A stretch of 64,000 nt of DNA from Haplodiscus bocki. Its lineage: Eukaryota. The stretch is taken from assembly GCA_965655095.1 (NCBI GenBank), contig OZ296659.1, positions 7,502,001 to 7,566,000 on the forward strand. Reading direction: 5' to 3'. Shown one piece after another: positions 24,201 through 64,000 of the stretch (within the stretch, counting starts at the first letter, position 1; the number at the start of each line of letters is the position of its first letter). The notes beneath the pieces are model-generated. The model saw only the letters and a list, made by a program, of their open reading frames with translations. It searched no databases and was not told the DNA's origin. The position numbers and the translations under genes were made by a program.

Positions 24201-27200
24201 AAAATTCAATATGCTCAGACGTAGGACCTTTAGCGCCGCAGTCGCGTGCTTTTCTGATTCTTAAATGGCAATGGCACATTCAGTAGACCATGTGACTGCT
24301 GCGCTAAAGTCCTAGGTTCGAGCCAAGGACACTCCCTTCTTTCCGATAAAATCTAGGAACAAATGCGAGTTGTGAATGGATAGGAAAAAAGTCAGCAGAA
24401 GATTGTGATACAACAATTGCTTGCGCAAGTTTACTCAAATTTACCGGGAAGGGTATTTGCCTCTGAACTTTCCATTTTTAGCATTATTGAAAACAGTTTC
24501 CGTCAACAAAGTGACGTAGAAATAAGTGGTGCAGTATCCTACGTAATAGTAGCACATGCAATGTGCTGACGGACCTCGCAGAGAGACACAAGAGTCCGCC
24601 ACATACTTTCAGGTCTGGAAAAAGTCAACGACGTACCGATAAAATCCTTCCTCTTCGATATTTCGAAAAATGAAAGAGGTATCACTATAATATCGAAAAC
24701 TTTCGGCTTCGATATTAATAATAGGTTTTCATTAAAATGTGTTTTCGAATGCATCATATCAGGATATCTTCACTGCTAAGTGGAAAATTACAAAAGCCGA
24801 GAAACGTTCAGATTCAGACAACTATTAGCTTTTCTTTGGAGAAAGCAAGTGTTGGATTACAATACAATCGAGTTATCAAAAAAACTCAATCATTAAAATT
24901 TATCCACCAATTATCCACAGCAAAAATCTGTAAAAAAATTGTAAAAATTTCGACTTCAAAAACAGACCCACCCGACAGTAGAAGTCAACAGCTAGACGAG
25001 AAATACGTAACCAACTTTTGGGCGTTTTACATGAAGTGTGGATAGAAGATGTTCAAATAATTCATTGCTGAATTACCGAATTATCATTGTTGCGAGTTTT
25101 TTCATCAAATTTCGCTGATTATTTTCTCTGAGCCGCGCTTAACCGATCAGATGTCATCTTTACGAAGAATAAGCGCTAATAGCTGCCGTATTTCCCCGAT
25201 TACAAGTCTCACAATGAAATATAGGATTCCCTGATTTTTTTCACCAGACAATGTCCCTCAATATAGCTTACTTGGAAGTATAAGACCCAAACACCCTCAA
25301 CTTTTCTCAAGTGAAATCAACAACGAAAAGATCGAACGTTGAACATTTTCATTGAATTAACCTCTTTGCAAGACAAATCGTGAAAATTATTGAACATATA
25401 ATTGTTCAAATTTCTCTCGTCACAAACTTTTTTTGACAAATAGTAGTGTCAATTTGAGAAATAGAGCTGTGAATGACCGAATTCTGCAAATCAAAATAAA
25501 TAACAGGCACCAGAATTGTGCTTTTCCACTAATTTTTCGCCTCGAAGTCAGCCACCGAAGAGCGAAAATGACGCGTTTGATGAACAACTACAAGATACCG
25601 TCAAGAAGTATAACGACAATGATTTTACGAAAACGATGATGGGCTATTCAAATGCAGTTGGTAACACCACCGGTGCAGTTACAGAGAAGTTTGGTCTGTG
25701 ACATAGAAACGAAATAAGACAAAGACTTGTCGACTGGTGTCTGGAAAAAAAATATTTGTATCATCAACACATTCTTCCAAAAGAAAACTGAAATTGGATA
25801 ATTGGACCAGCCGAGATGACATACAAAGAAATGAATAGATTACACGATAGTTCCAACAAAAGAAAGGAAACCCATTCTGAACGTTGACGCGTGTCCAGCA
25901 GCCGGCTATTAGTTAGATCATGCACCGGTCATAGCCCGTTTCAGGTTTCGACTAAAACTTGAAAAATTTAAGGAACCATGAAGCAGATTTGTTTGGGACA
26001 CCTGCAACTATACACAATACACTGTCTAAAGAAATCGAAGAGGTTTTCTTCCTGGAACCATTTTGACCAAAATGAAACAATTAGTGAGAACGCGTTTCAG
26101 TCGTCAAAGCAACAAAAACACTGGATGAAAAGGAACAGTAGTAGAAACTTAAGAACCAACCGCAGCAGTGCCACAGTCTCAGTAAAGTCGTTAAACGTTC
26201 ATGCAACGAAGCAGAAGAGAACTTTCTTGCTGAATAACGCCGTATAATACAAGCTTGGTAGACATTAACACCCAAAGTCCACTGAGATTCTTTGGGTGTT
26301 AATTTCTACCAAGCTTGTATTATACGGCATTATTCAGCAAGAAAGTTCTCTTCTGTTTCGTTTTTGTTGCTTTGACGACTGAAACGCGTTCTCACAAATC
26401 GTTTCATTCTGGTCAAAATGGTTCCATGAAGAAAGCCTCTTCGAAACCGTTAGACAGTGTGTATAGTTGCAGGTCTCCCAAACAAAAGAACTCACTGGAT
26501 GCTGCAAGGAATGGAAGTCCTTCGGAGATCTAAAGTCAAAAGAGTAATAACTTTGCGTCAATGAAACAGAAATCAATGAAAGATGGGAAGGATATATCAC
26601 TGAGTTATATGACGACCCTGCAGAGTAAATCAGCCGATAATCTTTCGAAAATCTGACATTGTATTCTTCGAACGAAAAAACGACGCAATCAGAAAGACAA
26701 AGTTGAATAAAGAAGCCGAACCTGATAATAACTACTCTGAAATGCGCCGTCCAATGGAAGATGATAGGGAGTTTTTACATAAAACCTTTAACCAAACTTA
26801 TGAAAGCAGCACAATCTTTTCCTAGTGGAAAGAATCGAAGTTTGTAAAACTGCCCAAAAAAAGTTCATCAAATCACTACGAAGATCATAGAACAATCAAT
26901 CTGTTTTGGAACGGCCCTACATTACTGACCAGAATCTACCTGAGAAGGCCCAAAGAAGAAATGGGAAGCAGTTTTGCCACTGCAAAATTCAGTTTCATGC
27001 CTGACAGCGGCAATAGATATGCAGTCTTCACAGTCAACAACATTATCTGAAGTCCAGTCGGATCTATAAATATGCTTCAATGATTACAAGAAGACTCTGA
27101 ATAAAGTCCAACACAACAACGAACTAATCCGCATTCTGAAAAATATAGGTCTAGACACCAAGAGACCTGAGACTACTCCAAAACACATATTATGACCAAG

Positions 27201-34800: not shown

Positions 34801-37800
34801 TAGCTTGGGGAAGCGAAGGAGTAAATAAGCGCGAATAAAAATAAATAAGATTTGCCTTTCACTCTATCGCTCAGCTCGGTGGCAGGACAAGAAAAACAAA
34901 GACCAAAATACCCAAGCCCAAAACACCCAAAGTATCTAAGCCTAAAATACCCAAGGCCAAAATACCCAATGTTACAAAATACCTAAGATTTGAAGAGCCA
35001 TAGTAATTAAATAATTAGCAGCGTCTTGAACTAAAAGTTTCAAGACGCCTTTAATTATTTATGTCTATTGATGTTTTAAACTATTGACGCTGACATAATA
35101 AAATACCACAAGTCAAAATATTCACAGAAAATTACGTTGAACAGAAAACAGCCGCGAAGTTCAAAAACTTGGGTATACACAGGGTGTACCCCACAAAATT
35201 TTCGGCAGAGATAAAATTGTAATTCACTCCACACAATTTTCGGCAGTGTGAGGCAAAATTGTGATTCTTGTCACAAATTTTTCGACACTGTGAGACAAAA
35301 TTGTAATTCACCTCACAAATTTTCGACACTGAGACAAAACTGTACTTCACTTCTCAAAATTTTCAACTCTGTGATACAAAATTCTAATTCATCCCACAAA
35401 ATTTTCGTCATCGTACGGAATTTTGACCTTCGGTATTTTGGGTGTGGGTATTTTGGAGTGGAACCGAATAAAATACCACAAGTCAATATTACCTTGAACG
35501 GAAAAACATTCGTGAAAAATTCAAAACTAGTTTTCTTTTTAAAAAATAAACGGACACTTGCATTTCCAAAATTCAGTATTTTTTCTCCAAAAACATTCAC
35601 ACAATATAATTTTCTAAAAATTGTAATTCACCTGCTTTTCGCCACTGTGATACAAAATTGTAATTCACTTCTCAAATATTTCGACAGTGAGAAAAAATTA
35701 TGACCCCCAACAAAATTTTCGGTTCTCTGGAAAACTTTACATTTCAAAATGGTGAAATTTTGCGAAGTTGATCCTAGATGTGGTTGTAAATTTGTACAGT
35801 GTGTTTATAATGGCGTATAGAAGTTTATTGAAAGAAGCAATAATATTTAGCATCGTAATTATGATATCTATTATGTAATTATGCAACATTCAAGTATTTT
35901 GGGTACTTTTGATGTTAAGACGCTTTTAATTATTTAATTGGTATTGTTGTTTGAATCTTGGGTATTTTGGCCTTGGGTATTTTGGGACATTAGGTATTTT
36001 GACTTTGGTGATTTTGGACTTGGGTATTTTGGGACTTTGGGTATTTTGATTTGGGTATTTCGGGCTTGGGTATTTTGGGTTTGGGTATTTTGGGTTGGAA
36101 CCGCTCAGCTCAGCCTTGCTCAGTCATGCCAGCGAAGAAAGAAGTAACATTTTTAAAATCTAGAGGCATTATGCGAAGGTTAATGCCTAAACACAAAGCG
36201 AAGCCGAACTTCGCAACACATTCTGATTTTTCAGTAGAGACCAAGGGTCCCGAAAGACATTTAAAACCATGATCGGAGATGTGATTGACACTTTAGAAAT
36301 ACCATTCTAGCTGTTAATAAAAAGTTTGTTCGAAAAAGTCAAATTGAGACAAGTACCTGTCACAGGGTCTCACTCAAGTTGATGTCAATCAGGTCTTTTC
36401 GTGTACGACATTTCGCTGCCCAATTTCTAAGAAGTTGGTACAGTAACCAACGCGAAAATGAACAAATTTCTGTCACAGAGTTTCAATAAAAAATGATATT
36501 TGAATCATGTCTTTTCAAACTACCCCATTTTGCCGCCCAATGTTTACGAAGTTTGTACTGTAAGAAAAACGTGAAAATGAACAAGTACCTGCCTAAAGGA
36601 AGACGTTTTCTCCCGTTTGAAATAGATGAATAGACTCTTTGTGGACGTCAGAAAAAGCAGGTTTTGAACATAAAAAAATAGGGCATAAGTTGACTGCAAT
36701 ACATCTCGCAGTCAGAACATGTAAAAGTCGAACTTTTTCGGTTGCAGTTCAAGACTTGCTGCACCCTCCCCTAACTGAGAATATAAGGGGAAATGTACAT
36801 TATTCTCGCTCTAGAGACGACACATGAGAACTTAGAATTCCGTCAATTACAGTGTCTTTAAAGAAGAAAAGTCATCATAAAGCACCGATTAAAAATAGGG
36901 ACTACTTTTCCAAAAATTGTGCAATTAAAAATTCGGATATGACAAATGTACCGGCAGGGTGACCTCGTCGTGGCACCATGTTAACTTGTTGACCCTGCTG
37001 TAACCCAGAAGCAGCAGCGACGGCAGCTGGGTTCGAACCCGCCACTCCGGCGTGACTCAAGAGTCCCATAAGACCACTGGGATGTCCTCCAAAGGAAATT
37101 GGATTGCCCGGAGTGGCCCCACCTGACCATAGATTATCAAAATTGTGTTTCATAAAGATCAGTAACATGTGAGTTTTTGATAAATTGAAGAACAAAGAGC
37201 AATCTTTTAATTAAAGGGTCAATTGAATGTGATCTTTTCACTTTACCAGTTGAACGTTTATCCTTGGAATTTAGAGATTGGACTTGTACACATCATTGAA
37301 TCTTTGACAAAAATGAACACTAATTTTAACTTTTCGTTAAATTTTATGCTTCGGCAATCGTCCAAGAAGTCTAACTTATAAAAATAAGCTTAAAAGGACC
37401 TGCATATTGTAGGCTGACCAAGCCTAAACATTTCAAGTGTAAATGCGCTGCAACGCCTCCAAATATTGAATAGAAAAACTTCGACAGGAGGAAAATCGAG
37501 AAGATTTGGTTTTTAGTATTTTCACCCACTGACAGTTAGTACATGTAGTTCGGATTAACAGTTGTTCAAATTGATGAGTCATAGCGAAACAACTTATAAT
37601 TGGTTGATAATTTTATTTTTGATAATCGGTGCGGGTGATGACCTGACATGACAGGGGGCCCGAGTGTGAAAGTGCCGAGACATTTGGAGAGCAGGGAGTT
37701 GACGAGGTAGAACTGCACATCGCATTGGGCAGTTTCGATTGTGGTGAAAACCGATTTGTCCACACAGATACTCAGACGGTAGCTGTTGTTCGCGTTGAAA

Positions 37801-50779: not shown

Positions 50780-51170
50780 TGGCCGATCGCTCAGTTAATC
50801 GATTGTTCAACGAGCTGATTTTAGCGCACTTCTGAAAAACTATTGGCTGAAGTAGTATGACTTGGTTACGAAACAAATACGAAATATGAGCAATGCAAAT
50901 TTGTTCAATAGCACAGTCGGTTAATTGAGCGGTCGGCTATTTATACGGTACCCGCTTAAAACTGTATGATAATTAAATGGGGTGCCGTTTAATTAGCCGA
51001 CCACTCAATCAACCGAATGTGCTATTGAACGAATTTGCATTCCGCGTATGTAACTTCCCTTCCGTTCATCGCTCGGAAATTTTACGAAACCGAACCTCGC
51101 TCGCTCAGCCAATAATATTCAAGAAACATGCTAAACTCGGCTCATAGAACAATCGGTTGAAAAAGCAGTC
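50780..51170. repeat. Foldback/MITE-like inverted repeat
   Basis: Inner arms ~50894-50939 and ~50993-51040 (gcaaatttgttcaatagcaca... / ...tgtgctattgaacgaatttgc) with weaker outer arms. Confidence 0.6.
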
Positions 51171-52088
51171 GTTTAGGTGATGAGTCACCAATTAAATAAC
51201 CGAAGATTTGACGACGAACAACTAACCCCTCATCTTCGGAACAAAAAAGGCCACAACTTCCGTTTTTGGATGCTACTGTCAAAATAATTTTTGAACGCAT
51301 AGTTATGCAAGCTCGGAACACACAACGCAAGGTATAATTTGATGATTCAAAACCTACAGCAACCATGGTCTACAGCAACCACATGCTTTGAAAATTGTTC
51401 AACTTAATAGTATTCGATAGCTTAGTTCACGCTTGTTTATTTTATTTGATCGTTAAAGGGTAGATGCCATTTGAAATAACTTTTATCAAGAACTTTGAAG
51501 AAGAAAAACACAAAACTCAGTAACGGGTGAAAGAAAGCTGAAACTGATCTATCTCAAACATATGCACTTGACTTGATTGACAGACAGTCCATTTAGAACC
51601 CGAAAGAAAAACGATATTAAAGGCACAAGACACTAGTGCAGCATAGGTACCGATGGGGCACAAAAATTTTTGTGGAAATGAACTGAGTACTTTCAGTCGG
51701 CGATTCAGTGATTTTACTACAGAGGCGAAGCAGAACTTCGCAACACATTCTGACTTGTCAGTTGAGATCAAAAATCACAATTATGCAGCAAAAGACATTT
51801 GAAACCATGATCAGAGATGTCACTGACACTTTCAAAAATATTAAAGCAGATGTCAATCAAGAGCTTGTTCGAAAAACTAAAATAAGACAAGTACTTGTCA
51901 CAGAATCCCACACTCAACAAGTTGATCTGTGAATCATGTCTTTTCAGGTTAAGCCACTTTGCGGACCATTTTTCAAGAGACGTGAACAGTAAACACTGCA
52001 AAAATGAGCATTATACAGCCCGTATTGATTTATTTTTAGAATACCACCAATATCACACTACTTAGTGTTGTCTGGATGGAAGCCAATC

Positions 52089-52213
52089 ATATAGGTGCGG
52101 ATTATACCAGTCAAATAATACCAGTAAAAAACTATGGTAGCCAAACCCGATACCGACTTTGACTACCATAACTTTTAATGGTATTATTTGACTGGTATAA
52201 TCCGCACCTATAT
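52089..52213. repeat. Near-perfect 125-bp palindrome (about 56-bp arms, 12-nt loop)
   Basis: atataggtgcggattataccagtcaaataatacca...tggtattatttgactggtataatccgcacctatat. Confidence 0.9.
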
Positions 52214-52719
52214 CACGTACCAGAAGAATTATAAATTTTTTTTACCATACCTGTTTTTCTCCACCATATAATTTAAGAAAGCGGCTATATATAATTCCAC
52301 ATTTACGTAAACATAAAATTGTGAAGCAATGGTAAAATGAACTCGCACGTGTATTTTTACGTTTAAAAACATGTATACAAAAACAAGCATTTCCTTTTAT
52401 TCATGGCCTCCTAATAGCCTAGTGGTATTTGTTCCATTGACTAAAGTTAAGGCTGTGCTTGCATAGTCATCGTGTTTGTGGTTCACGATTATCCAACGTC
52501 CCACTGTCTCTGTAACATCACGCGCAAAAGCTATATGGAGGAACTGTCCACGTTATGGAGCTTGAAAAAGTAGAATTGATCGACGGGGATATCCACCAGG
52601 AATGCTCCCTCGCTAGACAGCTGAAAAACTCGACACGAAAGTTGGCCAGTGGATATTTTTGTCTTAATATGAAAACACGATTTCTGAGAAATACACACAT
52701 TATGACAACATACCTTAAA

Positions 52720-52985
52720 AATGTACAGATTATAAAATTTTAAGCTACAACAAAGTGTGATATGTCATTGGATAGCCCGTTAAAAGTTTAGTTAACCCTG
52801 AAAATTTCAGCCTTGTAACTATTACCATCTTCGAGAAAAGTGATCGTTAACACTTTGCTTAAACATGTAGAGATTATAAAATTTTAAGCTACATCAAAGT
52901 GCGATATATCATTCGATAGCTCGTTAAAATATTAGTGTACGTTCAAAATTTCAACCCCGTATCTATTATCATTTTCGAGAAATCG
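52720..52985. repeat. Two-copy ~145-bp tandem duplication at the edge of the viral region
   Basis: atgta(c/g)agattataaaattttaagctaca..aaagtg.gatat.tcatt.gatagc.cgttaaaa at ~52721 and ~52865. Confidence 0.7.
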
Positions 52986-53222
52986 ACAAAATAGTATTTG
53001 TAAAATTAAACTTATTGATACAAGTATACGAATAAAAATACTAGTATTTGTATGCATGTAATTATACCTATCAACATTGTGGATTATTATATAAATACCA
53101 TTGGCGACATGCAAAATGAAATGAATTTCTTCGGTCATTGCAATATGTTTGAATATAATCACAATTTTGAAAAAGTGACGACAACAATAACGTCAACAAT
53201 GTAAAGTTTTAATATTATAAAA

Positions 53223-53681
53223 ATGGAGTATCTTTGTCAAAGATGTGATGAATTTATTTATGATGAATACTCCATTAACAATCCAAATCTCAATGACAAT
53301 GATAAAATAATCAATAATTATGTCACCATTTATAATAAGAAGTTCGATATATATTACATCAAATGTGATTTCTATTTAGTATCTAACAATGATTTTGGAA
53401 TACATATAAAAACTCATTATGTTCATAACAAAGACGACTTGACCAAAATAAAGACAGAATTATTATTCAAGCTCGAACTTCTCAAATATGAAGGATATAG
53501 TTTTTGTTTCATTAATGAAATGATCATCAAAACCATTACTGATACACACTGGATGACATATACAACTTACATGCAAAAACCTATGCCTATGGTGGAAAGA
53601 AGATTCAACTATGTTTTTCAAAAATGTCCATTTTTAATCAGAGCATTAGATCATAACAAAAATTCTCATATAGAATTATAA
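53223..53681 (+). CDS. Hypothetical element protein, N-terminal CxxC, motif MTYxxYxxxPxxMxE
   Basis: 152-aa ORF; paralogous to 53836-54405. Confidence 0.6.
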   Translation: MEYLCQRCDEFIYDEYSINNPNLNDNDKIINNYVTIYNKKFDIYYIKCDFYLVSNNDFGIHIKTHYVHNKDDLTKIKTELLFKLELLKYEGYSFCFINEMIIKTITDTHWMTYTTYMQKPMPMVERRFNYVFQKCPFLIRALDHNKNSHIEL

Positions 53682-53835: not shown

Positions 53836-54405
53836 TTATCTATTTCTTAAAATCTGTTTAAAATCGTTGTTGGGTTCAGTTGGAGTGTTATTTAACCAAT
53901 CACCTCTGACACAAACTAAACGATTATTGGGGTCTATTATACCGAATCCATAGTATTTAAGTATTAGATATTCATAATAAGGAGCTTTACTGTATTCAAG
54001 TATTCTTAATTTTTCTGGATATTTATCAAGATTTTTGATCAACAAGGTTTCTAACATAGCTTTGGGTTGTGATATATAGTAATTAAAAGACATATCTTTT
54101 CTATTTGAATAAAAATTAAACTCAACATTTATCTTTTCATCTTTATCGTAAAATTTTAATGAAACGCGTTTGGGGTAACCCATGATTTTTTTGTTATTAA
54201 TTTTACATACAATTAAAAAAGAATGAAATTTCCGTTTATGTTTTTTAAATATATTAGAAAGAGTGTTATCAATTTCATTAACAAGTATGATTTCTTTTTT
54301 GTATATATATTTAACTCCAAACGCTTTTTCTAAATGAAAATTACGACGATGTTTTCTGAAATAATTGTCCGAATAATCTCTGTTACAACTTTGACAATGT
54401 CTCAT
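53836..54405 (-). CDS. Hypothetical element protein with N-terminal C2H2-like finger; paralog of 53223-53681
   Basis: CQSCNRDYSDNYFRKHRRNFH; MSFNYYISQPKAMLETLLIKNLDKYP. Confidence 0.6.
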   Translation of the reverse strand: MRHCQSCNRDYSDNYFRKHRRNFHLEKAFGVKYIYKKEIILVNEIDNTLSNIFKKHKRKFHSFLIVCKINNKKIMGYPKRVSLKFYDKDEKINVEFNFYSNRKDMSFNYYISQPKAMLETLLIKNLDKYPEKLRILEYSKAPYYEYLILKYYGFGIIDPNNRLVCVRGDWLNNTPTEPNNDFKQILRNR

Positions 54406-54684
54406 TTGAAAGAAAGAAATAGTCGATGTCTTTAACGACGATTTTGAAGTTCAATTTTAAAAAATGCATATAAAATGAACATTAAAACGAATTTACTTGA
54501 AGAATACATCAACTTTGTCGATAACACAAAGAAACAAAATAGATACTTTAAATTAAGTATATTCTTAATTGTTATAATTTTTTTTCTGTTTTTGTTTCTT
54601 GTTTTATTTAAACATCTTACAAAGTAATATTCGTACAAGTATAAGAATACAAGTAAAAGAATACATGTTATTATACAATATTAA

Positions 54685-55132
54685 ATGAATAACAGTTTTT
54701 CTCTGCAACAAATACCAAAAGCAAGCAATCTCGATGCTAATCTAATATCTCGACAATACAAATTAAATCTTATGGCTGATTTTATGAAGGTCAAATATGA
54801 AAACCCGAAAATGAAACAATCTGAGATTGCAAATCAATTAGGTATCTCTTCTAGCACCATACAAAGATACAGAAACGATATAAATATGCTTTCACCATAC
54901 AGGATTAGCGCAAATAACACCAAAAAACGATCAAAAAAGGCTAAAAATACTGATTTTGAGAACGATTCACACCACGAAGCTGATGTTAAAAGACCTCAAA
55001 TGACCTCAAAAGACCCCAATCGGCATCAAATGAAAATAGCAAGAAAACAAAAACAATTTACAAGGTGGATCTGTACAAGAGAAAATTGACGAACACTATT
55101 TAGATAAAGTTCTTAAGAATAATGATAGATGA
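54685..55132 (+). CDS. Helix-turn-helix DNA-binding protein (C-terminus frameshifted)
   Basis: MKQSEIANQLGISSSTIQRYRND is a canonical HTH; the shifted tail reads NLQGGSVQEKIDEHYLDKVL. Confidence 0.75.
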
Positions 55133-55407
55133 ACTCTTACACGTGTAATTATATCTTTATATTCATACTCATAAAACATGAATACATATAATTATAAGAG
55201 TATTTATGCCAAAGATATACTTACAAATATACGAGTAGTTATACAATCATACCAATTATGTGATATGTATAAATATATGAGTACTTATACTTGGGTATAC
55301 TTACAATTATACGAATAGATATAACAAGTATGATGAATATAATATTAATAATTATATCATTATTCATATTTGAATAATTGTAATTATACTAAAATATGTC
55401 TTCTTAA

Positions 55408-55641
55408 ATGGAATTAGCTATGCAAATTATTTCTAGTGATAAAACAGTAAGAATTGATACAGTGAAAGATTTAAAAGAATTTAACTCTCAATCTTTAGCA
55501 ACACAGGCAAAGAAAGGCGAGCAATTAGTTAGTATGATGCCTGCTATTAAAGAAGCTTTTGATTTGTTGGGTGATGATATAGTTGATCTATCTACAGAAA
55601 ATGATGCTTTAAAAAGTGAAAAATGGCTTGAAGAATCTTAA
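55408..55641 (+). CDS. Small coiled-coil hypothetical protein (probably continues to ~55724 after a frameshift)
   Basis: ORF with TAAATG start and heptad-like VDLSTENDALKSE. Confidence 0.5.
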   Translation: MELAMQIISSDKTVRIDTVKDLKEFNSQSLATQAKKGEQLVSMMPAIKEAFDLLGDDIVDLSTENDALKSEKWLEES

Positions 55642-55758
55642 AACAAAATGTCAAAACAGATTGATGATGAAAAAAGAGCAAAGTTAATCATGTCTAGAAT
55701 GAAAAAACAAATGCAAAAACATTAATTTTCTTATACTTGTACAAATAATATTGTATAA

Positions 55759-56172
55759 ATGGCTTATATTAGTTATACCAAATTATGGGAAAGTGAATTT
55801 GATGGCATCGTTTCGAAAAGAGATAAATTACAAGATTTGAATATTAATCAATTAAAACTCGAAGTACACGATAGTTATAAAAAAGATGAAAAAATAACAA
55901 CAAATTTTGAACCTATCGATAACTCAGATGTTATAAACAAAGGTTACCTAGACGATAAATTATTAAAAATAAACAGTCACTTATCAAAATTAGTAAAAGA
56001 TTTCAACGAATTTAAATTACAATACAACAAACAAAGTGTAGAAGATATTCTAATTCAAAGAGCTGTGAAAACAACGATACAAATACTTCATGATAAAGGT
56101 TTATTTGATAATTATGCTAATGCTGATAAAGTTTTAGAAGATTTTTTTGTTTACAACAAGGAGAAGAGGTGA
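55759..56172 (+). CDS. Fibre-like/coiled-coil protein; 5'-truncated copies at ~57771-58156 and ~63174-63556
   Basis: EPIDNSDVINKGYLD resembles the P..xxDAxNKxYVD neck motif of viral fibres and is followed by a coiled coil. Confidence 0.5.
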   Translation: MAYISYTKLWESEFDGIVSKRDKLQDLNINQLKLEVHDSYKKDEKITTNFEPIDNSDVINKGYLDDKLLKINSHLSKLVKDFNEFKLQYNKQSVEDILIQRAVKTTIQILHDKGLFDNYANADKVLEDFFVYNKEKR

Positions 56173-56189
56173 TCTATCCGACCAAGTAA

Positions 56190-56602
56190 ATGATGGTGTT
56201 CAATGAATTTATTAAAGAATACAAATTAAAAAATAAAGCAACATCAAATATAAAAATTCAATAAGTCCTGACTTCTATAGGATTAGACAATGTTACATCT
56301 ATCCAAGGGACGGATCGTTCTCCAGTGATATCGGAATAGTCAATTTGCATCCATCTCTAGGGACACATTGGGTTGTGTACATAGACGAAAATTATTTTGA
56401 TAGTTACGGTTGTGTTCCTCCTAAAAAGCTATCTAAATTTATCATAAAACGAAAAGGATATTGTTTATATTCAGAATACCAGATTCAAAAAAATGATAGT
56501 TTTTGCGCAAGTTTTTGTTTATATATACTTTACCTGACAGAAGTGTTAGGTATTGATTTTAAATCTGCTGTTTTGAATTTGTATTATCAGAGATTTTCAT
56601 AA
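56190..56602 (+). pseudogene. Adenain-like cysteine protease, copy 1 (premature stop and frameshift)
   Basis: MMVFNEFIKEYKLKNKATSNIKIQ* then GTHWV, YFDSYG, QIQ, FCASFCL. Confidence 0.85.
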
Positions 56603-56762
56603 AAATTGTTTTTGTACAATTATACTATTATCCTTATAAGAATAGATGTAATTTTACTAAATTGACCAATCACAAATAAGTTAAATTATTCATACAAGTA
56701 TAATAATAATTATAAAATTATTCGTATTTGAATAAGTGTAATTATACAATTAAATATTATAA

Positions 56763-57202
56763 ATGACATTGAGAAAAATAACTATTGATAATAGTGTTAG
56801 ATATATTCCAAAAATCCAAAAAAAACCATAATTCCAAAAAGAAATATAAAAATTACAAAACTCTAAACAATATTAGAATCAGTAGACAGTATCGTTATCA
56901 TTGCAACTACGTCAACTTCGGTAACTCTATCGATTACTGGTATAGGTTTGATTATTTTACCAATATCGGCTGGAATTGCTTGTACTCTATCATTAGGTAA
57001 CAAAATATTACATAAATTAATCAAAAACAAATATAATAAATATAAAAAACAATATGAACGAGATCAACAAACTATTAAATCTTTCGACAAATTATACAGA
57101 AAACCATTACAAGATAATGTAATCGATAAAACTGAATATGAAAGTCTTTGTAATATTTTTACTAAATATGTTGACGAAAATAAAGATGAATCTTTTTTAT
57201 AA
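56763..57202 (+). pseudogene. Chimeric relic: start of the basic protein fused to the body of the membrane protein
   Basis: MTLRKITIDNSVRYIPK (cf. 58678) joins at ~56810 to sequence nearly identical to 62218-62607. Confidence 0.75.
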
Positions 57203-57371
57203 ATATGAACATAAAAATAAAATTAAACTTTTTTAGTCAAAATAAATTAAAATTTCATCCTAGAACTTAAAAAAACGTTTATGTTTAATATTAACTGTTC
57301 TATTCAATGATATTGCGAACAGTTCTGTTCTGTTCAATGATAATATGATTATGAACTGTTTTGTATTTTAA

Positions 57372-57772
57372 ATGGAGAAGAATAAAAATTGTTCTGTACG
57401 TAACATAAAATTAGATATAAATAATTAAAAGAAAGATAGAACTGTTTGTAAGGATTGTTATAATAAAAAGAAAAGAAAAAACAAAATCACTATTTCTCAT
57501 CAACAACCGATAATTGAAAACGGTAATAATAATAATACCAATCGAACATTTTTGGTTGGACCAACTTTTTCAGGTAAAACATATTTGATGTTAAAAATTC
57601 TTTCGCGAATGATAGATCGAGATATTTATATAATTACTAAATCACCTCCAGAACAGTATACCAATTCCAAAATCAAAATCAAAGAAATAAGCGATGAAAT
57701 TAAACCTCTAAACGAATATGAAAACGGTATCATAGTTTTTGATGATATTTTAGGCTCATCAAATAGCAGATC
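57372..57772 (+). pseudogene. Zn-finger + A32-like packaging ATPase, truncated after Walker B (second copy 62778-63175)
   Basis: In-frame MEKNKNCSV(R/C)...CKDC (one TAA), then LVGPTFSGKT (Walker A) and IIVFDD (Walker B); the sequence then jumps into the fibre-like gene. Confidence 0.85.
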
Positions 57773-58257
57773 GTTTCTAAAAGACATAAACTACAAGATG
57801 CTAATATTAGTCAATTAAAACTCGAAGTACATGATACTTATAAAAAAGATGAAAAAATAACAACAAATTTTGAACCTATCGATAACTCAGATGTTATAAG
57901 CAAAGGTTACCTAGATGAAAAATTGTTAAAAATAAACGGTCACTTATCAAGAATAGAAAAAGATTGCAACGAATTTAAATTACGATATAACAAACAATCT
58001 GTAGAAGATAATTTAATTCAAAGAGCTGTGAAAACAACGGTACAAATACTTTATGATAAGGGATTATTTGATAATTTCCAAAATGCTGATAAAGTTTTAG
58101 AAGATTTTTTGTTTACAACAAGACGTAGAGGTGATTTATCAGAAGATAATACATAATTAGATTTATAACACACGGATAAATACAATTATTGTTTGTATTT
58201 ATATGAGTAATACATAACTATATGTATATTTATACATACAATTATATGAGTGTTTAA

Positions 58258-58671
58258 ATGATAACATTCAATGATTTTATTGAAAATTATAAATTAAAAA
58301 ATAAAGCAACGTCAAATATAAAAATTCAACAAATCCTTTCGTCTTTGTCTTTGAATAATGTAGGGATCTATTTAAGAGACGGACCTTTTGAATCTGATAT
58401 AGGGATTGTAATTTTACATCCATCAAAAGGTACTCATTGGGTTTGTTATATAAATGAAAATTATTTTGATAGTTATGGTTGTGTCTGTCCAAAGAAACTA
58501 TCTAAATTTATTATAAAAGGAAACGGATATTGTTTATATTCTGAATATCAAATTCAAAAAAATAGTAGTTTTTGCGCTGGTTATTGTTTATATATAATTT
58601 ATTTGACAAAAGTTGAAGGTATTGATTTTAAATCTGCTGTTTTGAATTTGTATTATCAGAGATTTTCGTAA
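58258..58671 (+). CDS. Adenain-like (clan CE) maturation protease, intact; third copy from 63660 to the window end
   Basis: Catalytic H (GTHW), D (YFDSYG), oxyanion Q (QIQ) and C (FCAGYCL). Confidence 0.9.
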   Translation: MITFNDFIENYKLKNKATSNIKIQQILSSLSLNNVGIYLRDGPFESDIGIVILHPSKGTHWVCYINENYFDSYGCVCPKKLSKFIIKGNGYCLYSEYQIQKNSSFCAGYCLYIIYLTKVEGIDFKSAVLNLYYQRFS

Positions 58672-58677
58672 TATTAA

Positions 58678-58875
58678 ATGGTATTAAGAAAAATAACTAT
58701 TGATAACAGTATTAGATATATTCCTAAAACTGAAAAAACAAAAGAAAAAGAGATTAAACCAAAAACAATAAAAGCTGGTTCACATCCTCGTAAACAGAAC
58801 AAAAAAATTTCACGAAATAGTAAAAAATTCCTTCAAAATGTAGCAGCAAGTGGATTTGGAGTACTTACAAAATAG
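58678..58875 (+). CDS. Small Lys/Arg-rich core-like protein
   Basis: 65 aa, very basic, C-terminal AASGF possible cleavage site. Confidence 0.55.
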   Translation: MVLRKITIDNSIRYIPKTEKTKEKEIKPKTIKAGSHPRKQNKKISRNSKKFLQNVAASGFGVLTK

Positions 58876-59022
58876 TATGTACATGTATAAGAATATCCGT
58901 ATCTGAATACGTGTAAATACACTTTATCAATCAATCGCAATTACAAATAAGATAACTTATTCATACAAGTATAAGAATGTTTTTAGTTGAATACGTGTAA
59001 TTATGCAATATTGATATTATAA

Positions 59023-60093
59023 ATGAATAATGAATTGTTACTTTTAATTAAAAAACATACTGATACATTAATAGAACAAACGAAAACAAAACCCCAAGAG
59101 ACTCTTGAATTCAAAATGAATAAACAAATGCAAACTTTTTCGTTTAATCCTCCAATAAATTTAGTTGAAGAAGGTAAATGGTTATTAGGAGTGTCCTTGT
59201 TTGATTGTACAAATTCTGTTTTCAATATAACTAACGAGATCAATTCGTTTTCAATCATTATACCAGGTCATTACCAAAACAAATCTGATGAAAAAACTAT
59301 TGACGATCTAAATAAATTATTACAGCTCAAATCTCTTGAATTACATGTAGACGAAGTTGGAGAAAGAGGGAATAAAATAAAAATAGGAGATGTTGAATAT
59401 CAGTTATCAGATTTTGATACTCAAAAAAAAATGAGATACTTGAAGAATTTAAAAATGTTAAATACAACGATCTTGAAGATTTAGTTCACAGAATGCGATT
59501 AAGTTATGATGAAATTATGGATATATTAGACTTGAAATATATTTCTACAAAAAGAACAGGATATTCGGTAAATCCGGGTATTTATGAAGTAGTTGATTTA
59601 AACAACACTTTAAAAAATATTTTACCCGATAATGTGAAAGTAAGTGTTACAATAGATGATGTTAGATTAAAATCAAATTTAAAAACTAATCAAACATTAA
59701 TTTTCACTGAAAAGTCTTTCTTTTATACAATTTTAGGTTTTACTCAATCACGATCGTATCCGTTAGATGATATAGATGGATTTTATCAATTGATTGCAGG
59801 ATCATACAGAAGCGATAGACCTATTAATATTACAGGACTTGATAAAATTCATTTAAAATGTGATTGTTCACAAGGATCGATCGTAAACGGTGTTCGAGAA
59901 CCTATTTTATACTCTTTTGCTTTGTCTTCACCCCCTGGTCATAAAATATACAAAGAACCAAGAGTCAAACTTTTTAAAAAAATAAAAAAATCTGTTCTAT
60001 CTTATATTAATTTTTAATTTGAAGATGACGATCACAAACCTGTTGATTTTAATGGAGAAACGATATCGTTTACATGTCAACTAATTAAAATTT
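59023..60093 (+). pseudogene. Minor capsid (penton-like) protein 1, frameshift and stop
   Basis: FNPPINL..GKWLLGV, PGIYE, IHLKCDC..GSIVNG...ILYSF....PPG.KI..EP, then EDDDHKPVDFNGETISFTCQL; Polinton mCP pattern. Confidence 0.8.
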
Positions 60094-60498
60094 ACAATTC
60101 ATATTTTTTTACATAAAAGGATACTTGTAATTATATGAGTTTTAAATGAAAACACAAAGACAAATAAGTTAAATTATTCATACAGGTATAATAATAATTA
60201 TGTTAAATATTCGTATTTGAACAGGTGTAATTATACAATATTAAATATTTACGCATAATTATGTTCAGACGAACAAGTTAAATTATTCAAACAAGTATAA
60301 TAATAAGTATACTATTATTCGTATTTGAATATCATTTGTAACACATACAATTATATGAGTAATTATACTAGGATATACTTACAATTATATGAGTAGTTGT
60401 ACATATGTTGCCTATTTGTTATACATACATTTTTATGAGTATTCATACTAGGGTATACTTACAAATATATGAGTACGTATTATAATTATACAATAAAA

Positions 60499-61613
60499 AT
60501 GAATTTAAATATGATCAGACCTAAAAACGAAACAGAAGATTCATTACTTTCAATAACCAAAAATTGTGAAACGCTAATTGAACAAACCCATAGAAAAGCT
60601 GAAGAAACGTTGAAATTCAAAATGATTAAACCAAGAGAAACATTTCATTTCAAACCACCAATTCACGTCAAAGGCGATTGGATGATTGGATTAACGGATT
60701 TAGAAGTTTATAATTCTATTTTTAATATAACAGAAAAAAATAATAAATTCGAACTATACAGAAATAGTTCAAACAAGTTTGGATTTTTAGAATTAAAAGA
60801 TGAGCTTGAAGAGATCTTTAATATTTCACATATTTCACAAGAACATCTCCTAGATGATGAAATAGGACCGCGTATTATTGATGAATTTCATAAATTATCG
60901 CATGAAAAGCAAAATAATGATGGTTATATGATATTATTACTGGGTTATAGCAGATGACTATTTCGAGATTTCGAAAGTTATTTGAGAATTGTAGTTGGTT
61001 TAGATGAAGAAGATATTCAGTTAATTTTAAAACAATATAATTCACATTTTACCACTTATGAACTAACTCTGGGGATTTATACAATTCAAGATATTTCAGA
61101 CACTATTCATACTTTCAGTGGTCATAGTGAGATCATAGAAATTGGATATGATGATATTGCCATGAAAACCAAAATTATTTTAAAATACAAAGGTGGACAG
61201 GATAAATTCGATTCAGGAACGTTGCGATTTGATGAAAGATCTTTTTTCATACATTGTTAGGTTTTGAACCATATTGGGATTATAAACCTACAAATTCTAA
61301 TCACGTTGCTATTCCGGGTGTTTATACTAGTGATAAAATGTTAAATTTAAGTACCACAAATAAGATTCACTTAAAATGTGATGTTATCGATGGTTCGGTA
61401 GTCGATGGTGTTAGACAACCGATTTTATATAGTTTTGTATTAGATAAATTACCCGAATACAAAGTGTTTTGTGAGCCCGAAACAGTTCATTATAAAAAAA
61501 TAAATAAAAGTATTTTGAATACTATAACGTTTTATTTCGAAGACGATAATAACACCGAAGTCCATTTTAATCAAGAGGTGTTAACTTTTACACTACAAAT
61601 GATTAAAATTTGA
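60499..61613 (+). pseudogene. Minor capsid (penton-like) protein 2, stop and frameshift
   Basis: FKPPIHVKGDWMIGL..LEVYNSIFNIT, GIYTI, IHLKCDVIDGSVVDGVRQPILYSF, FNQEVLTFTLQMIKI. Confidence 0.8.
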
Positions 61614-61648
61614 ACAAACATGTTTACACATAATTATTTGTATAATAA

Positions 61649-62061
61649 ATGAACTCTCAAAAATTCAAAACTAATAGTTATTGTGTTGGTGGTAAACACT
61701 ACAGTGGGACAAAAAATATCACTGGTGAGATAACATTTAATAAAAAAACCGGTAAAGAGATTAAGTTATTAGTTGGAAAATGTGTTATTTGTGATTAAAA
61801 AAATCTATGATTGTGAGTGATAATACGATACAAGCAGAAGGATTAGGTGATTTCTTCACAAAATTGGGGAGGATCTCCGGTAAAGCAGCTAAAAAATTAG
61901 CAACTAATGCTCTCAAGAATCCATCTAGATTCCTTGAAATCGGTGCGAATGTTGCTGCTGTGACCGCAAGTAGAAATCCTAAAGCAGCTTTATCAGCATT
62001 ACCTGAAGTAATTAATTTCTATCACACAGGCAAAGGCCTCTATCTTGGAAAATTTGTTTAA
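61649..62061 (+). pseudogene. Zn-ribbon-like N-terminus plus amphipathic membrane-lytic-like protein (break at ~61795; C-terminal ORF 61807-62061 open)
   Basis: YCVGGKH...GKCVICD, then AEGLGDFFTKLGRISGKAAKKLA and C-terminal TGKGLYL. Confidence 0.55.
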
Positions 62062-62076
62062 GTTTTTATATAATAA

Positions 62077-62607
62077 ATGGACCAAAAAACAGATAAATTA
62101 TACCCATCAGCACCATTATTGGAAAATATTGATTTAGAAAAACGATTAGAAAAGAAAATTAATGATGTTAACAGTTTTAATAACCATGTTAATGATATTA
62201 AAGAAATGATTACATATTTCAAAAAAAACCATAAATCCAAAAAGAAATATAAAAATTATAAAACTCTAAACACAATATTAGAATCAGTAGACAGTATCGT
62301 TATCATTGCAACTACGTCAACTTCGGTAACTCTATCGATTACTGGTATAGGTTTGATTATTTTACCAATATCGGCTGGAATTGCTTGTACTCTATCTTTA
62401 GGTAACAAAATATTACATAAATTAATCATAAACAAATATAATAAATATAAAAAACAATATGAACGAGATCAACAAACTATTAAATCTTTCGACAAATTAT
62501 ACAGAAAACCACTACAAGATAATGTAATCGATAAAACTGAATATGAAAGTCTTTGTAATATTTTTACTAAATATGTTGACGAAAATAAAGATGAATCTTT
62601 TTTATAA
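62077..62607 (+). CDS. Polinton-type membrane protein with hydrophobic hairpin and N-terminal LYPSAP motif
   Basis: 176 aa; coiled coil, IVIIATTSTSVTLSITGIGLIILPISAGIACTLSLG, C-terminal LQDNVIDKTEY. Confidence 0.7.
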   Translation: MDQKTDKLYPSAPLLENIDLEKRLEKKINDVNSFNNHVNDIKEMITYFKKNHKSKKKYKNYKTLNTILESVDSIVIIATTSTSVTLSITGIGLIILPISAGIACTLSLGNKILHKLIINKYNKYKKQYERDQQTIKSFDKLYRKPLQDNVIDKTEYESLCNIFTKYVDENKDESFL

Positions 62608-64000
62608 ATATGAACATAAAAATAAAATTAAACTTTTTTAGTCATAATAAATTAAAATTTCATCCTAGAACTTAAAAAAAACGTTTATGTTTAATATTAA
62701 CTGTTCTATTCAATGATATTGTGAACAGTTCTGTTCTGTTCAATGATAATATGATTATGAACTGTTTTGTATTTTAAATGGAGAAGAATAAAAATTGTTC
62801 TGTATGTAACATAAAATTAGATATAAATAATTAAAAGAAAGATAGAACTGTTTGTAAGGATTGTTATAATAAAAAAAGAAAAAACAAAATCACTGTTTCT
62901 CATCAACAACCGATAATTGAAAACGGTAATAAAATAAATAACAATCGAACACTTTTGGTTGGACCATCTTTTTCAGGTAAAACATATTTGATGTTAAAAA
63001 TTCTTTCGCGAATGATAGATCGAGATATTTATATAATTACTAAATCACCTCCAGAACAGTATACCATTTCTAAAAACAAAATCAACGAAATAAGCGATGA
63101 AATTAAACCTCTAAACGAATATGAAAACGGTATCATAGTTTTTGATGATATTTTAGGCTCATCAAATAGCAGATCGTTTCTAAAAGACATAAACTACAAG
63201 ATGCTAATATTAGTCAATTAAAACTCGAAGTACATGATACTTATAAAAAAGATGAAAAAATAACAACAAATTTTGAACCTATCGATAACTCAGATGTTAT
63301 AAGCAAAGGTTACCTAGATGAAAAATTGTTAAAAATAAACGGTCACTTATCAAGAATAGAAAAAGATTGCAACGAATTTAAATTACGATATAACAAACAA
63401 TCTGTAGAAGATAATTTAATTCAAAGAGCTGTGAAAACAACGGTACAAATACTTTATGATAAGGGATTATTTGATAATTTCCAAAATGCTGATAAAGTTT
63501 TAGATTTTTTGTTTACAACAAGACGTAGAGGTGATTTATCAGAAGATAATACATAATTAGATTTATAACACACGGATACATACAATTATTGTTTGTATTT
63601 ATATGAGTAATACATACAACTATATGTATATTTATACATACAATTATATGAGTGTTTAAATGATAACATTCAATGATTTTATTAAAAATTATAAATTAAA
63701 AAATAAAGCAACGTCAATTATAAAAATTCAACAAATCCTTTCGTCTTTGTCTTTGATTAATGTAGGGATCTATTTAAGAGACGGACCTTTTGAATCTGAT
63801 ATAGGGATTGTAATTTTACATCCATCAAAAGGTACTCATTGGGTTTGTTATATAAATGAAAATTATTTTGATAGTTATGGTTGTGTCTGTCCAAAGAAAC
63901 TATCTAAATTTATTATAAAAGGAAACGGATATTGTTTATATTCTGAATATCAAATTCAAAAAAATAGTAGTTTTTGCGCTAGTTATTGTTTATATATAAT

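Follow-up and report, generated by a model that had tools for sequence, protein, structure and literature searches.

A poxvirus-type late-promoter motif and an Rpo18 homologue in AT-rich Maverick-Polintons of the animal Haplodiscus bocki

The 64,000-nucleotide stretch analysed here (the window; positions 7,502,001 to 7,566,000 of contig OZ296659.1, assembly GCA_965655095.1) comes from Haplodiscus bocki, an animal with a genome of 1.5 Gb. The window includes the left third of a Maverick-Polinton that has undergone rearrangements and frameshifts; most of its genes carry TAA directly before the start codon and begin with TAAATG. A preliminary description of this DNA had recognized TAAATG as the poxvirus late initiator and had proposed that the element was transcribed by the RNA polymerase of a co-infecting pox-like virus. 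The same motif is found throughout a family of AT-rich Polintons in this genome, some of which also encode a homologue of the poxvirus RNA polymerase subunit Rpo18, and both features point to a pox-like helper.

The Maverick-Polinton of the window and its relatives

The element starts at position 52085, and the GC content drops from ~37% to 25% near 53 kb; its far inverted repeat ends at window-equivalent position 88619, which gives a total of 36.5 kb. This length is due to a 5.4-kb block repeated ~4.2 times; sister copies measure 17.1-18.6 kb between terminal inverted repeats (TIRs) of 0.2-1.5 kb. The flanking sequences GAAGCC and GAAGTC would correspond to a 6-bp target-site duplication (TSD) with one mismatch. 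Exact 6-bp TSDs are found at 6 AT-rich loci, the window copy's being imperfect. Many window genes are frameshifted or fused (Table 1), and the window copy is therefore decayed. The intergenic gaps between 52998 and 60494 also contain three degenerate repeat families of 55-73 nt (D2, D7, and D19), some of them inverted; these might be binding sites of the helix-turn-helix (HTH) protein or recombination points.

TAA stands before the ATG at all 13 starts for which it had been reported (54685, 55408, 55759, 56190, 56763, 57372, 58258, 58678, 59023, 61649, 62077, 62778, and 63660), and the reported exceptions are genuine (TAAAAATG at 53223 and 60499; CAAATG at 54405 on the minus strand). The count of nine distinct genes is also correct. 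The remaining starts are duplicates, which arose when the 5.4-kb block was amplified in tandem and through one further, local duplication, so that the independent sample is nine genes. In-frame internal ATGs can never follow TAA and are thus unusable as a null; the enrichment was judged against out-of-frame ATGs and intergenic composition. Between 53000 and 64000, TAA precedes other ATGs by chance at 5 of 221 sites on the plus strand and 4 of 161 on the minus strand, and in the host DNA (1-52900) at 52 of 1651. The upstream intergenic probability of TAA, given A as the next base, is 0.047, and its presence at nine of nine genes corresponds to a p of ~1e-12.

Of the names proposed for these genes, HTH protein (Pfam HTH_24, E 5.5e-5), A32-like ATPase (PF04665, above the cut-off in a sister copy), and penton are supported. 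The fold of the sister-copy penton protein matches the pentons of PBCV-1 (Z 10.6, root mean square deviation [rmsd] 3.0, 120 residues aligned) and mavirus (Z 9.4, rmsd 8.6, 227 aligned), as well as that of Sputnik. The protease remains putative: the family has invariant H60, D71, Q100, and C106, its only Pfam match is the weak one to adenain (PF00770, E 0.0085) in one of two lineage-E copies, and it has no PDB match. Neighbours of the membrane protein in the Atlas belong mostly to Preplasmiviricota, a weak lead, and the Atlas has no usable match for a 282-aa protein.

Table 1. Features of the Maverick-Polinton in the window (positions are those of the window)
Feature	Position	Strand	Remarks
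Left TIR, ~1.08 kb	52085..53169		Right partner at window-equivalent 87673-88619 (G000:C12:7589673-7590619), 96% and 94% identity in two blocks
Hairpin-forming inverted repeat near the terminus	52089..52213		41-nt arms, 43-nt loop, 98% complementary
Accessory ORF, 152 aa, N-terminal CxxC	53223..53681	+	Start TAAAAATG; weak similarity to a 181-aa accessory family found in sister copies; no Pfam match
Accessory ORF, 189 aa, N-terminal CxxC	53836..54405	-	Start CAAATG
TAAATG and HTH protein	54682..55089	+	Family TAAATG at 14/14 starts
TAAATG and 111-aa family gene (candidate "coiled coil")	55405..55719	+	Stop at 55641 in the window copy; family TAAATG 11/11
TAAATG and 137-155-aa family gene (candidate "fibre-like")	55756..56172	+	Family TAAATG 11/11
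TAAATG and putative maturation protease, copy 1	56187..56602	+	Frameshifted
TAAATG and basic-protein gene start	56760..57202	+	A deletion has fused it to the membrane-protein gene's 3' part
Tandem unit, 5.4 kb	56817..64000	+	~4.2 copies, 98% identity; extends to window-equivalent 79396
TAAATG and Zn-finger/A32-type packaging ATPase, 5' half	57369..58153	+	Broken; fused to a second 155-aa-family piece (tandem junction)
TAAATG and putative maturation protease, 137 aa	58255..58671	+	Family TAAATG 16/16
TAAATG and basic protein, 65 aa	58675..58875	+	Family TAAATG 9/9
TAAATG and minor capsid (penton) gene 1	59020..60092	+	Frameshifted; sister-copy fold is that of a penton; family TAAATG 16/16
Penton gene 2	60494..61613	+	Broken; start TAAAAATG in the window; TAAATG in 14/15 grouped starts
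TAAATG and 137-aa Zn-ribbon/amphipathic gene (candidate "lytic")	61646..62061	+	Broken by a stop; family TAAATG 8/8
TAAATG and membrane protein, 176 aa	62074..62607	+	Family TAAATG 15/15
Broken ATPase/155-aa junction, tandem copy 2	62775..63553	+	TAAATG start
TAAATG and protease, next tandem copy	63657..64000	+	Continues past the window end

The preliminary description had called the element a Polinton-like virus (PLV). With a pPolB, an rve integrase, and a putative protease, Maverick-Polinton fits better, the definition of that class being pPolB, rve integrase, A32 ATPase, capsid proteins, protease, TIRs, and a 6-bp TSD (10.64898/2026.06.19.733378). These elements resemble animal Maverick-Polintons (Polintoviricetes) in all these respects, with both major and minor capsid proteins and a protease that is putative. 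The Pfam domain PF03175 is found above the cut-off in three polymerase types on AT-rich elements; the 1325-aa pPolB type of the window's element has no Pfam match, but polymerase motifs are visible in its sequence. The rve integrase (PF00665, E 1e-10) has a homologue in the window's element beyond position 64000, and sister copies encode a double jelly-roll major capsid protein (PF21738) and the A32 ATPase (PF04665).

The AT-rich loci comprise two capsid lineages, A (that of the window) and E, which are 22-26% identical and are associated with at least three polymerase types. The capsids of a second group of Polintons in the same genome, with ~40% GC, have no BLAST similarity to either lineage. 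Other capsid relatives in the library, known from proteins alone, are 24-52% identical; the capsid tree was built by a quick method from our own copies and 7 library proteins. All 150 scored matches of the protease family, drawn out of 16,292 first-look candidates (a figure that does not give the copy number), are 84-100% identical. Judging from these matches, the element family is large and high-copy.

One and the same capsid module, that of lineage A, occurs with three or more pPolB types (L020, L027, L126, and L173), of which one has an endonuclease VII domain and another is not detected by Pfam. Lineages A and E also have accessory genes and terminal repeats in common. A 19.3-kb palindromic derivative (L163/L143/L144/L164; G000:C4:88366120-88385434) consists of two inverted 9-kb arms that are 98.8% identical. 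Each arm has pPolB and HTH genes, the whole is flanked by a 6-bp target duplication, and there is no capsid gene among its ORFs of at least 95 aa. The GC-40% Polintons (L134-L142, L145-L156, and L160-L162) form several subfamilies with TIRs of ~50-180 bp that start with AGTAGT and contain G-runs.

TAAATG as a family-wide DNA signal

A search of the genome with pPolB, together with the surrounding DNA, yielded 21 AT-rich loci and 8 loci of ~40% GC. Open reading frames (ORFs) were grouped across loci by N-terminal homology before the starts were counted. Left out beforehand were 2 families (8 ORFs) whose GC content exceeds 30%, and 17 families (47 ORFs, none with TAAATG) made up of antisense frames or of pieces from inside broken genes. 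In the resulting 46 families from the 21 AT-rich loci, TAAATG is found at 296 of 324 starts (296 of 371 if the 47 ORFs are kept), and TAAAT lies within -10..+2 of 314 of them. By majority, 40 of the 46 families have TAAATG (binomial p 7.5e-47 at a background of 0.047). The other stop codons do not share this position: TGA precedes the ATG twice and TAG never, against background frequencies of 2.1% for TGA, 1.1% for TAG, and 4.6% for TAA. The motif is common to capsid, integrase, and pPolB genes.

Elsewhere in the genome the pattern disappears. The GC-40% Polintons have TAAATG at 0 of 86 starts (33 families, 8 loci), and long ORFs above 35% GC have it at 1 of 80. Host starts (8 tubulin and 3 histone genes) have it at 0 of 11, and every one of these has a purine at -3. 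The enrichment reported for one copy holds family-wide against the composition null, host genes, and the second Polinton group. An independent set of 214 homology-grouped starts from 50 further loci comprises 137 with TAAATG, 48 with displaced TAAAT, 24 with TAAAA, and 5 others; TAAAT is at or just before the start in 185 of the 214.

Of the 28 starts that lack TAAATG, 22 keep TAAAT 2, 3, or 12 nt farther upstream, often out of frame. Such displaced copies would be expected neither of a stop codon nor of a start context, and the motif is therefore a DNA motif. In vaccinia late promoters, TAAATG overlaps the start codon, and a conserved T, flanked by Ts, is the 10th nucleotide upstream of TAAAT (PMC11980589); the poxvirus TAAAT is the initiation site, where slippage generates a 5' poly(A) leader (PMC4542343, PMC12722222). 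The position of this T (T-10) was taken from the published work before the start profile was computed. The profile peaks exactly at T-10, with flanking Ts at -14 and -12. The T is present at 237 of the 296 starts, versus 1314 of 4018 non-start TAAAT sites (33%). Counted by distinct promoter cluster, it is present in 122 of 155 (0.79 in lineage A and 0.80 in lineage E). It moves along with TAAAT in 16 of the 22 displaced cases. By family, it is present at all 29 major capsid starts and is lacking in Rpo18 (8% of 49 starts) and in a few accessory families.

A zinc-finger accessory family (L201:2207-2770; 40 starts) mostly begins with TAAAAATG, like the window ORF at 53223, and keeps the upstream T (85%). 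Compared with synonymous shuffles, AT-rich coding sequences (194 ORFs of lineage A and 99 of lineage E) are depleted in AAAAAA (observed/expected 0.65-0.67) and slightly depleted in TAAATG (0.78-0.83); the former value is not discriminating because the GC-40% elements also show 0.77. The baculovirus late motif DTAAG occurs at 52 of 324 starts, versus 27 and 25 (not family-weighted), and is too rare to account for the pattern. Scans of viral contigs found no relatives in other hosts. A metagenome scan found one 1.7-kb contig, encoding a capsid protein 88% identical to that of lineage A, with a T-tract and TAAATG at the start (L185:1-67); it does not count as independent of this lineage.

An Rpo18 homologue in sister copies

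In 3 of 7 lineage-E copies, a gene of 128-143 aa adjoining the terminal repeat matches the poxvirus RNA polymerase 18-kDa subunit (PF03293) with E values of 1e-19 to 7e-16 and scores of 58.8-79.6 bits, against a curated cut-off of 25. Its only significant sequence match in PDB is vaccinia rpo18 (E 1.4e-11 with a single sequence and 8.7e-15 with a profile), and no Rpb7 chain is among the matches listed at E<=10. Fold searches place squirrelpox, salmon gill pox, and vaccinia Rpo18 at the top (20-35% identity, E 2.7e-6 to 4.4e-4), with entomopoxvirus, African swine fever virus (ASFV), and cellular Rpb7 far weaker (E >=0.029). In PDB and BFVD alike, the top-ranking matches come from poxviruses. 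By these sequence and model comparisons, the protein appears closest to chordopoxviruses, closer than to entomopoxviruses or to cellular Rpb7. It is shorter than its vaccinia counterpart (~143 vs 161 aa), matching mainly residues 5-110.

The gene has at least 150 matches in the genome, and each of the 50 loci examined is within a Polinton, nearly always one of lineage E. The median pairwise dN/dS is 0.30 at a dS of ~0.7 (528 pairs, 33 copies), versus 0.07-0.27 for core genes, and the Rpo18 homologue is under purifying selection. The combination of high dS and low dN suggests that the copies go back to numerous independent insertions out of a varied population and not to the copying of one master element. 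Pfam finds no other pox-derived gene among 40 further accessory proteins and no large RNA polymerase subunit in the scanned element ORFs; the small Rpo18 is the one subunit found.

The start of this gene has features of its own. In vaccinia intermediate promoters, T-10 is missing and the segment 15-19 nt upstream is rich in A/T (PMC11980589, PMC4542343). Of the families compared, Rpo18 is the richest in A at 15-19 nt upstream; this is a single family in a set selected on the motif, and the resemblance to an intermediate promoter is suggestive only.

Proposed transcription by a pox-like helper and its alternatives

The AT-rich Polintons are likely to be virophage-like elements that are transcribed by the RNA polymerase of a pox-like helper instead of host polymerase II. 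Three lines of sequence evidence favour this part of the preliminary description: the confinement of the motif to these elements, as opposed to host genes and the second Polinton group; T-10; and Rpo18 in sister copies. The helper itself has to be postulated, as no gene of it was found in the assembly. Integrated copies would stay silent until a helper infects the cell. Its post-replicative machinery would then start within the AAA of TAAAT, with slippage producing 5' poly(A) leaders. Like mavirus in its relation to CroV, the element would bring its own pPolB, integrase, and capsid module, and could replicate, be packaged, and reintegrate. The captured Rpo18, a polymerase stalk subunit, might enter the helper polymerase and bias or cripple it; whether as hijack or decoy is a guess. 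Its intermediate-like promoter, a feature of one gene family, might allow expression before the capsid genes.

The closest functional parallel is provided by the mavirus/EMALE provirophages of Cafeteria and their helper CroV, which share a similar size, pPolB, rve integrase, TIRs, TSD, and AT richness with the elements described here. The CroV late promoter precedes all mavirus genes (PMC6723459), and the presence of TAAATG on pPolB and integrase as well as capsid genes parallels this arrangement. Mavirus/EMALE provirophages are silent until helper infection (10.1101/068312, PMC6723459, PMC10945749). They differ in having a protist host, a helper of the Mimiviridae type, and another promoter, as compared with an animal host, a poxviral promoter, a PF21738 capsid, and a polymerase subunit gene; reactivation and protection have been shown for mavirus. 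The PLVs associated with entomopoxviruses (Barth et al. 2024) have been proposed to be poxvirus hyperparasites that exchange genes with their helper (PMC11296320). These are found in insect occlusion bodies and have exchanged helicases and end modules; the present elements form many chromosomal copies with rve integrases, and their Rpo18 appears nearer to chordopoxviruses. The main text of that paper has no occurrence of "promoter", "TAAAT", "motif", or "transcription". Vaccinia shares the late promoter sequence and the fold and sequence of Rpo18 (D7R), but here the motif belongs to an integrating element of 17-18 kb that has no large polymerase subunits, and it precedes the replication genes too.

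Several observations weigh against helper transcription. VLTF3 has no match in the assembly, although the control also matched nowhere. The Rpb2 family is represented only by host polymerases II and III, a search of limited sensitivity since host polymerase I was missed. The Rpb1 family consists of three split loci, taken as host genes from their exon pattern; the PolB family, of one intron-split host-type gene, polymerase epsilon, and one Polinton; and the cap-methyltransferase family, of one split locus. Such an absence is compatible with an infecting virus or with none, and it neither supports nor excludes a helper. Within the elements, T-10 is found at only 107 of 185 starts (58%) of the independent set, with a broad peak; the weakness is due to two abundant accessory families that lack it (8% and 22%). 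Only 2 of the 50 Rpo18 loci, in neighbouring repeats, are beside lineage-A structural genes, the mapped ORFs of the window copy do not include an Rpo18 gene, and the structure model of the protein is modest (pLDDT 67, TM ~0.5). TAAAT is short and AT-rich, and a similar initiator is found in yeast linear elements with their own polymerase (PMC6211774). Finally, an integrase implies a nuclear stage, which leaves the first meeting of an integrated copy with a cytoplasmic polymerase unexplained.

Two alternatives, both improbable, would supply another polymerase. One is a resident cytoplasmic partner of the pGKL2 type, with its own pox-related polymerase and capping enzyme, on which the Polintons would depend as pGKL1 does. 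The yeast plasmids pGKL1 and pGKL2, both linear and AT-rich, have a pPolB, a TAAAN initiator, and 5' poly(A) leaders made by slippage (PMC6211774, PMC12722222), and a cytoplasmic element could escape a nuclear assembly. pGKL2 encodes its own polymerase, capping enzyme, and helicase; no RNA polymerase or capping enzyme of this kind was found in the sampled elements or in genome searches, and in particular, the assembly has no second Rpb1, Rpb2, or cap-methyltransferase locus. The upstream motif ATNTGA of these virus-like elements (VLEs) shows no enrichment between -46 and -15 (39 of 324, versus 32 and 32), and the Rpo18 homologue and T-10 point to true poxviruses. The Polintons encode capsids; VLEs are not known to integrate or to make capsids.

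The other, of similarly low probability, is nuclear transcription by host polymerase II redirected by element factors, either the HTH protein or Rpo18 in place of Rpb7, with the pox-type promoter and gene as relics of a past association. It would suit elements that pass through the nucleus when they integrate, the HTH protein is encoded by all lineage-A copies, and a helper virus was not found in the assembly. No TBP or TFIIB family match is found in 122 Pfam queries with element proteins, although remote homologues are possible, and TATA is not enriched (27 versus 34 and 32 of 324). A start within TAAAT would, on general grounds, leave a templated leader of 0-3 nt, poor for scanning ribosomes unless slippage adds poly(A). 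The coding strands of the elements contain 3.6-3.8 AATAAA per kb, without depletion; this is a weak point and not discriminating, because AATAAA occurs within 400 nt of the stop in no more than 3 of 12 host tubulin frames. The least probable reading, by a wide margin below these two, is that TAAATG acts in translation, either as the host's start context or by coupling a stop to a start in DNA that is compact and AT-rich. In its favour, TAA is the most frequent stop in such DNA, an in-frame upstream ATG lies within 150 nt at 67 of 296 TAAATG starts, and 31 starts have an upstream frame of at least 30 codons or one open through the scanned region. At most 67 of these TAA codons, however, close an upstream in-frame ATG, the predominance of TAA over the other stops and the host starts argue against it, the displaced motifs with their T-10 largely refute it, and it leaves Rpo18 unexplained.

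With transcription by a pox-like helper as the preferred reading, the transcription of animal Polintons and their need for a helper become accessible to test. No virions of animal Polintons have been observed (10.64898/2026.06.19.733378). Helper-promoter virophages in protists and PLVs with entomopoxviruses were already known; the poxvirus late-promoter motif and Rpo18 in animal Polintons appear to be new. In the full-text literature searched, which mostly leaves out subscription journals, no report came to light of TAAAT promoters, a helper-type promoter, or a polymerase subunit such as Rpo18 in Polintons. A single genome here offers a natural comparison: one group of Polintons resembles the host in GC and starts, and two widely diverged capsid lineages have pox-type promoters and a captured Rpo18. 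This makes helper dependence testable. On this reading, some non-insect invertebrate should harbour a pox-like virus with an Rpo18 nearer to those of vertebrate poxviruses than to those of entomopoxviruses. The TAAAT/T-10 signature also provides a simple screen for other genomes. That the elements serve as an antiviral defence of the host, as the preliminary description had suggested, is a tentative idea that we consider rather unlikely. The same doubt applies to a fuller picture in which they would be animal provirophages of an undiscovered chordopox-like virus of a marine invertebrate lineage, with thousands of independent integrations forming an inducible antiviral defence and Rpo18 serving the takeover of the helper polymerase. 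If that picture is true, the signature could tell which Polintons of any animal genome depend on a poxvirus.

Two minor features concern the host. The gene for the second subunit of RNA polymerase III (RPC2; L031) appears to be intronless, with a single open frame of 1139 codons. The protein shares 62-66% identity with named proteins, which are almost exclusively from animals, and 84% with one further protein; this points to a fast-evolving animal, whereas histone H3 carries no information on the host taxon. The host DNA of the window contains palindromic or inverted repeats at 26019-26460, 50884-51049, and 34892-36103, which are probably small non-autonomous transposons.

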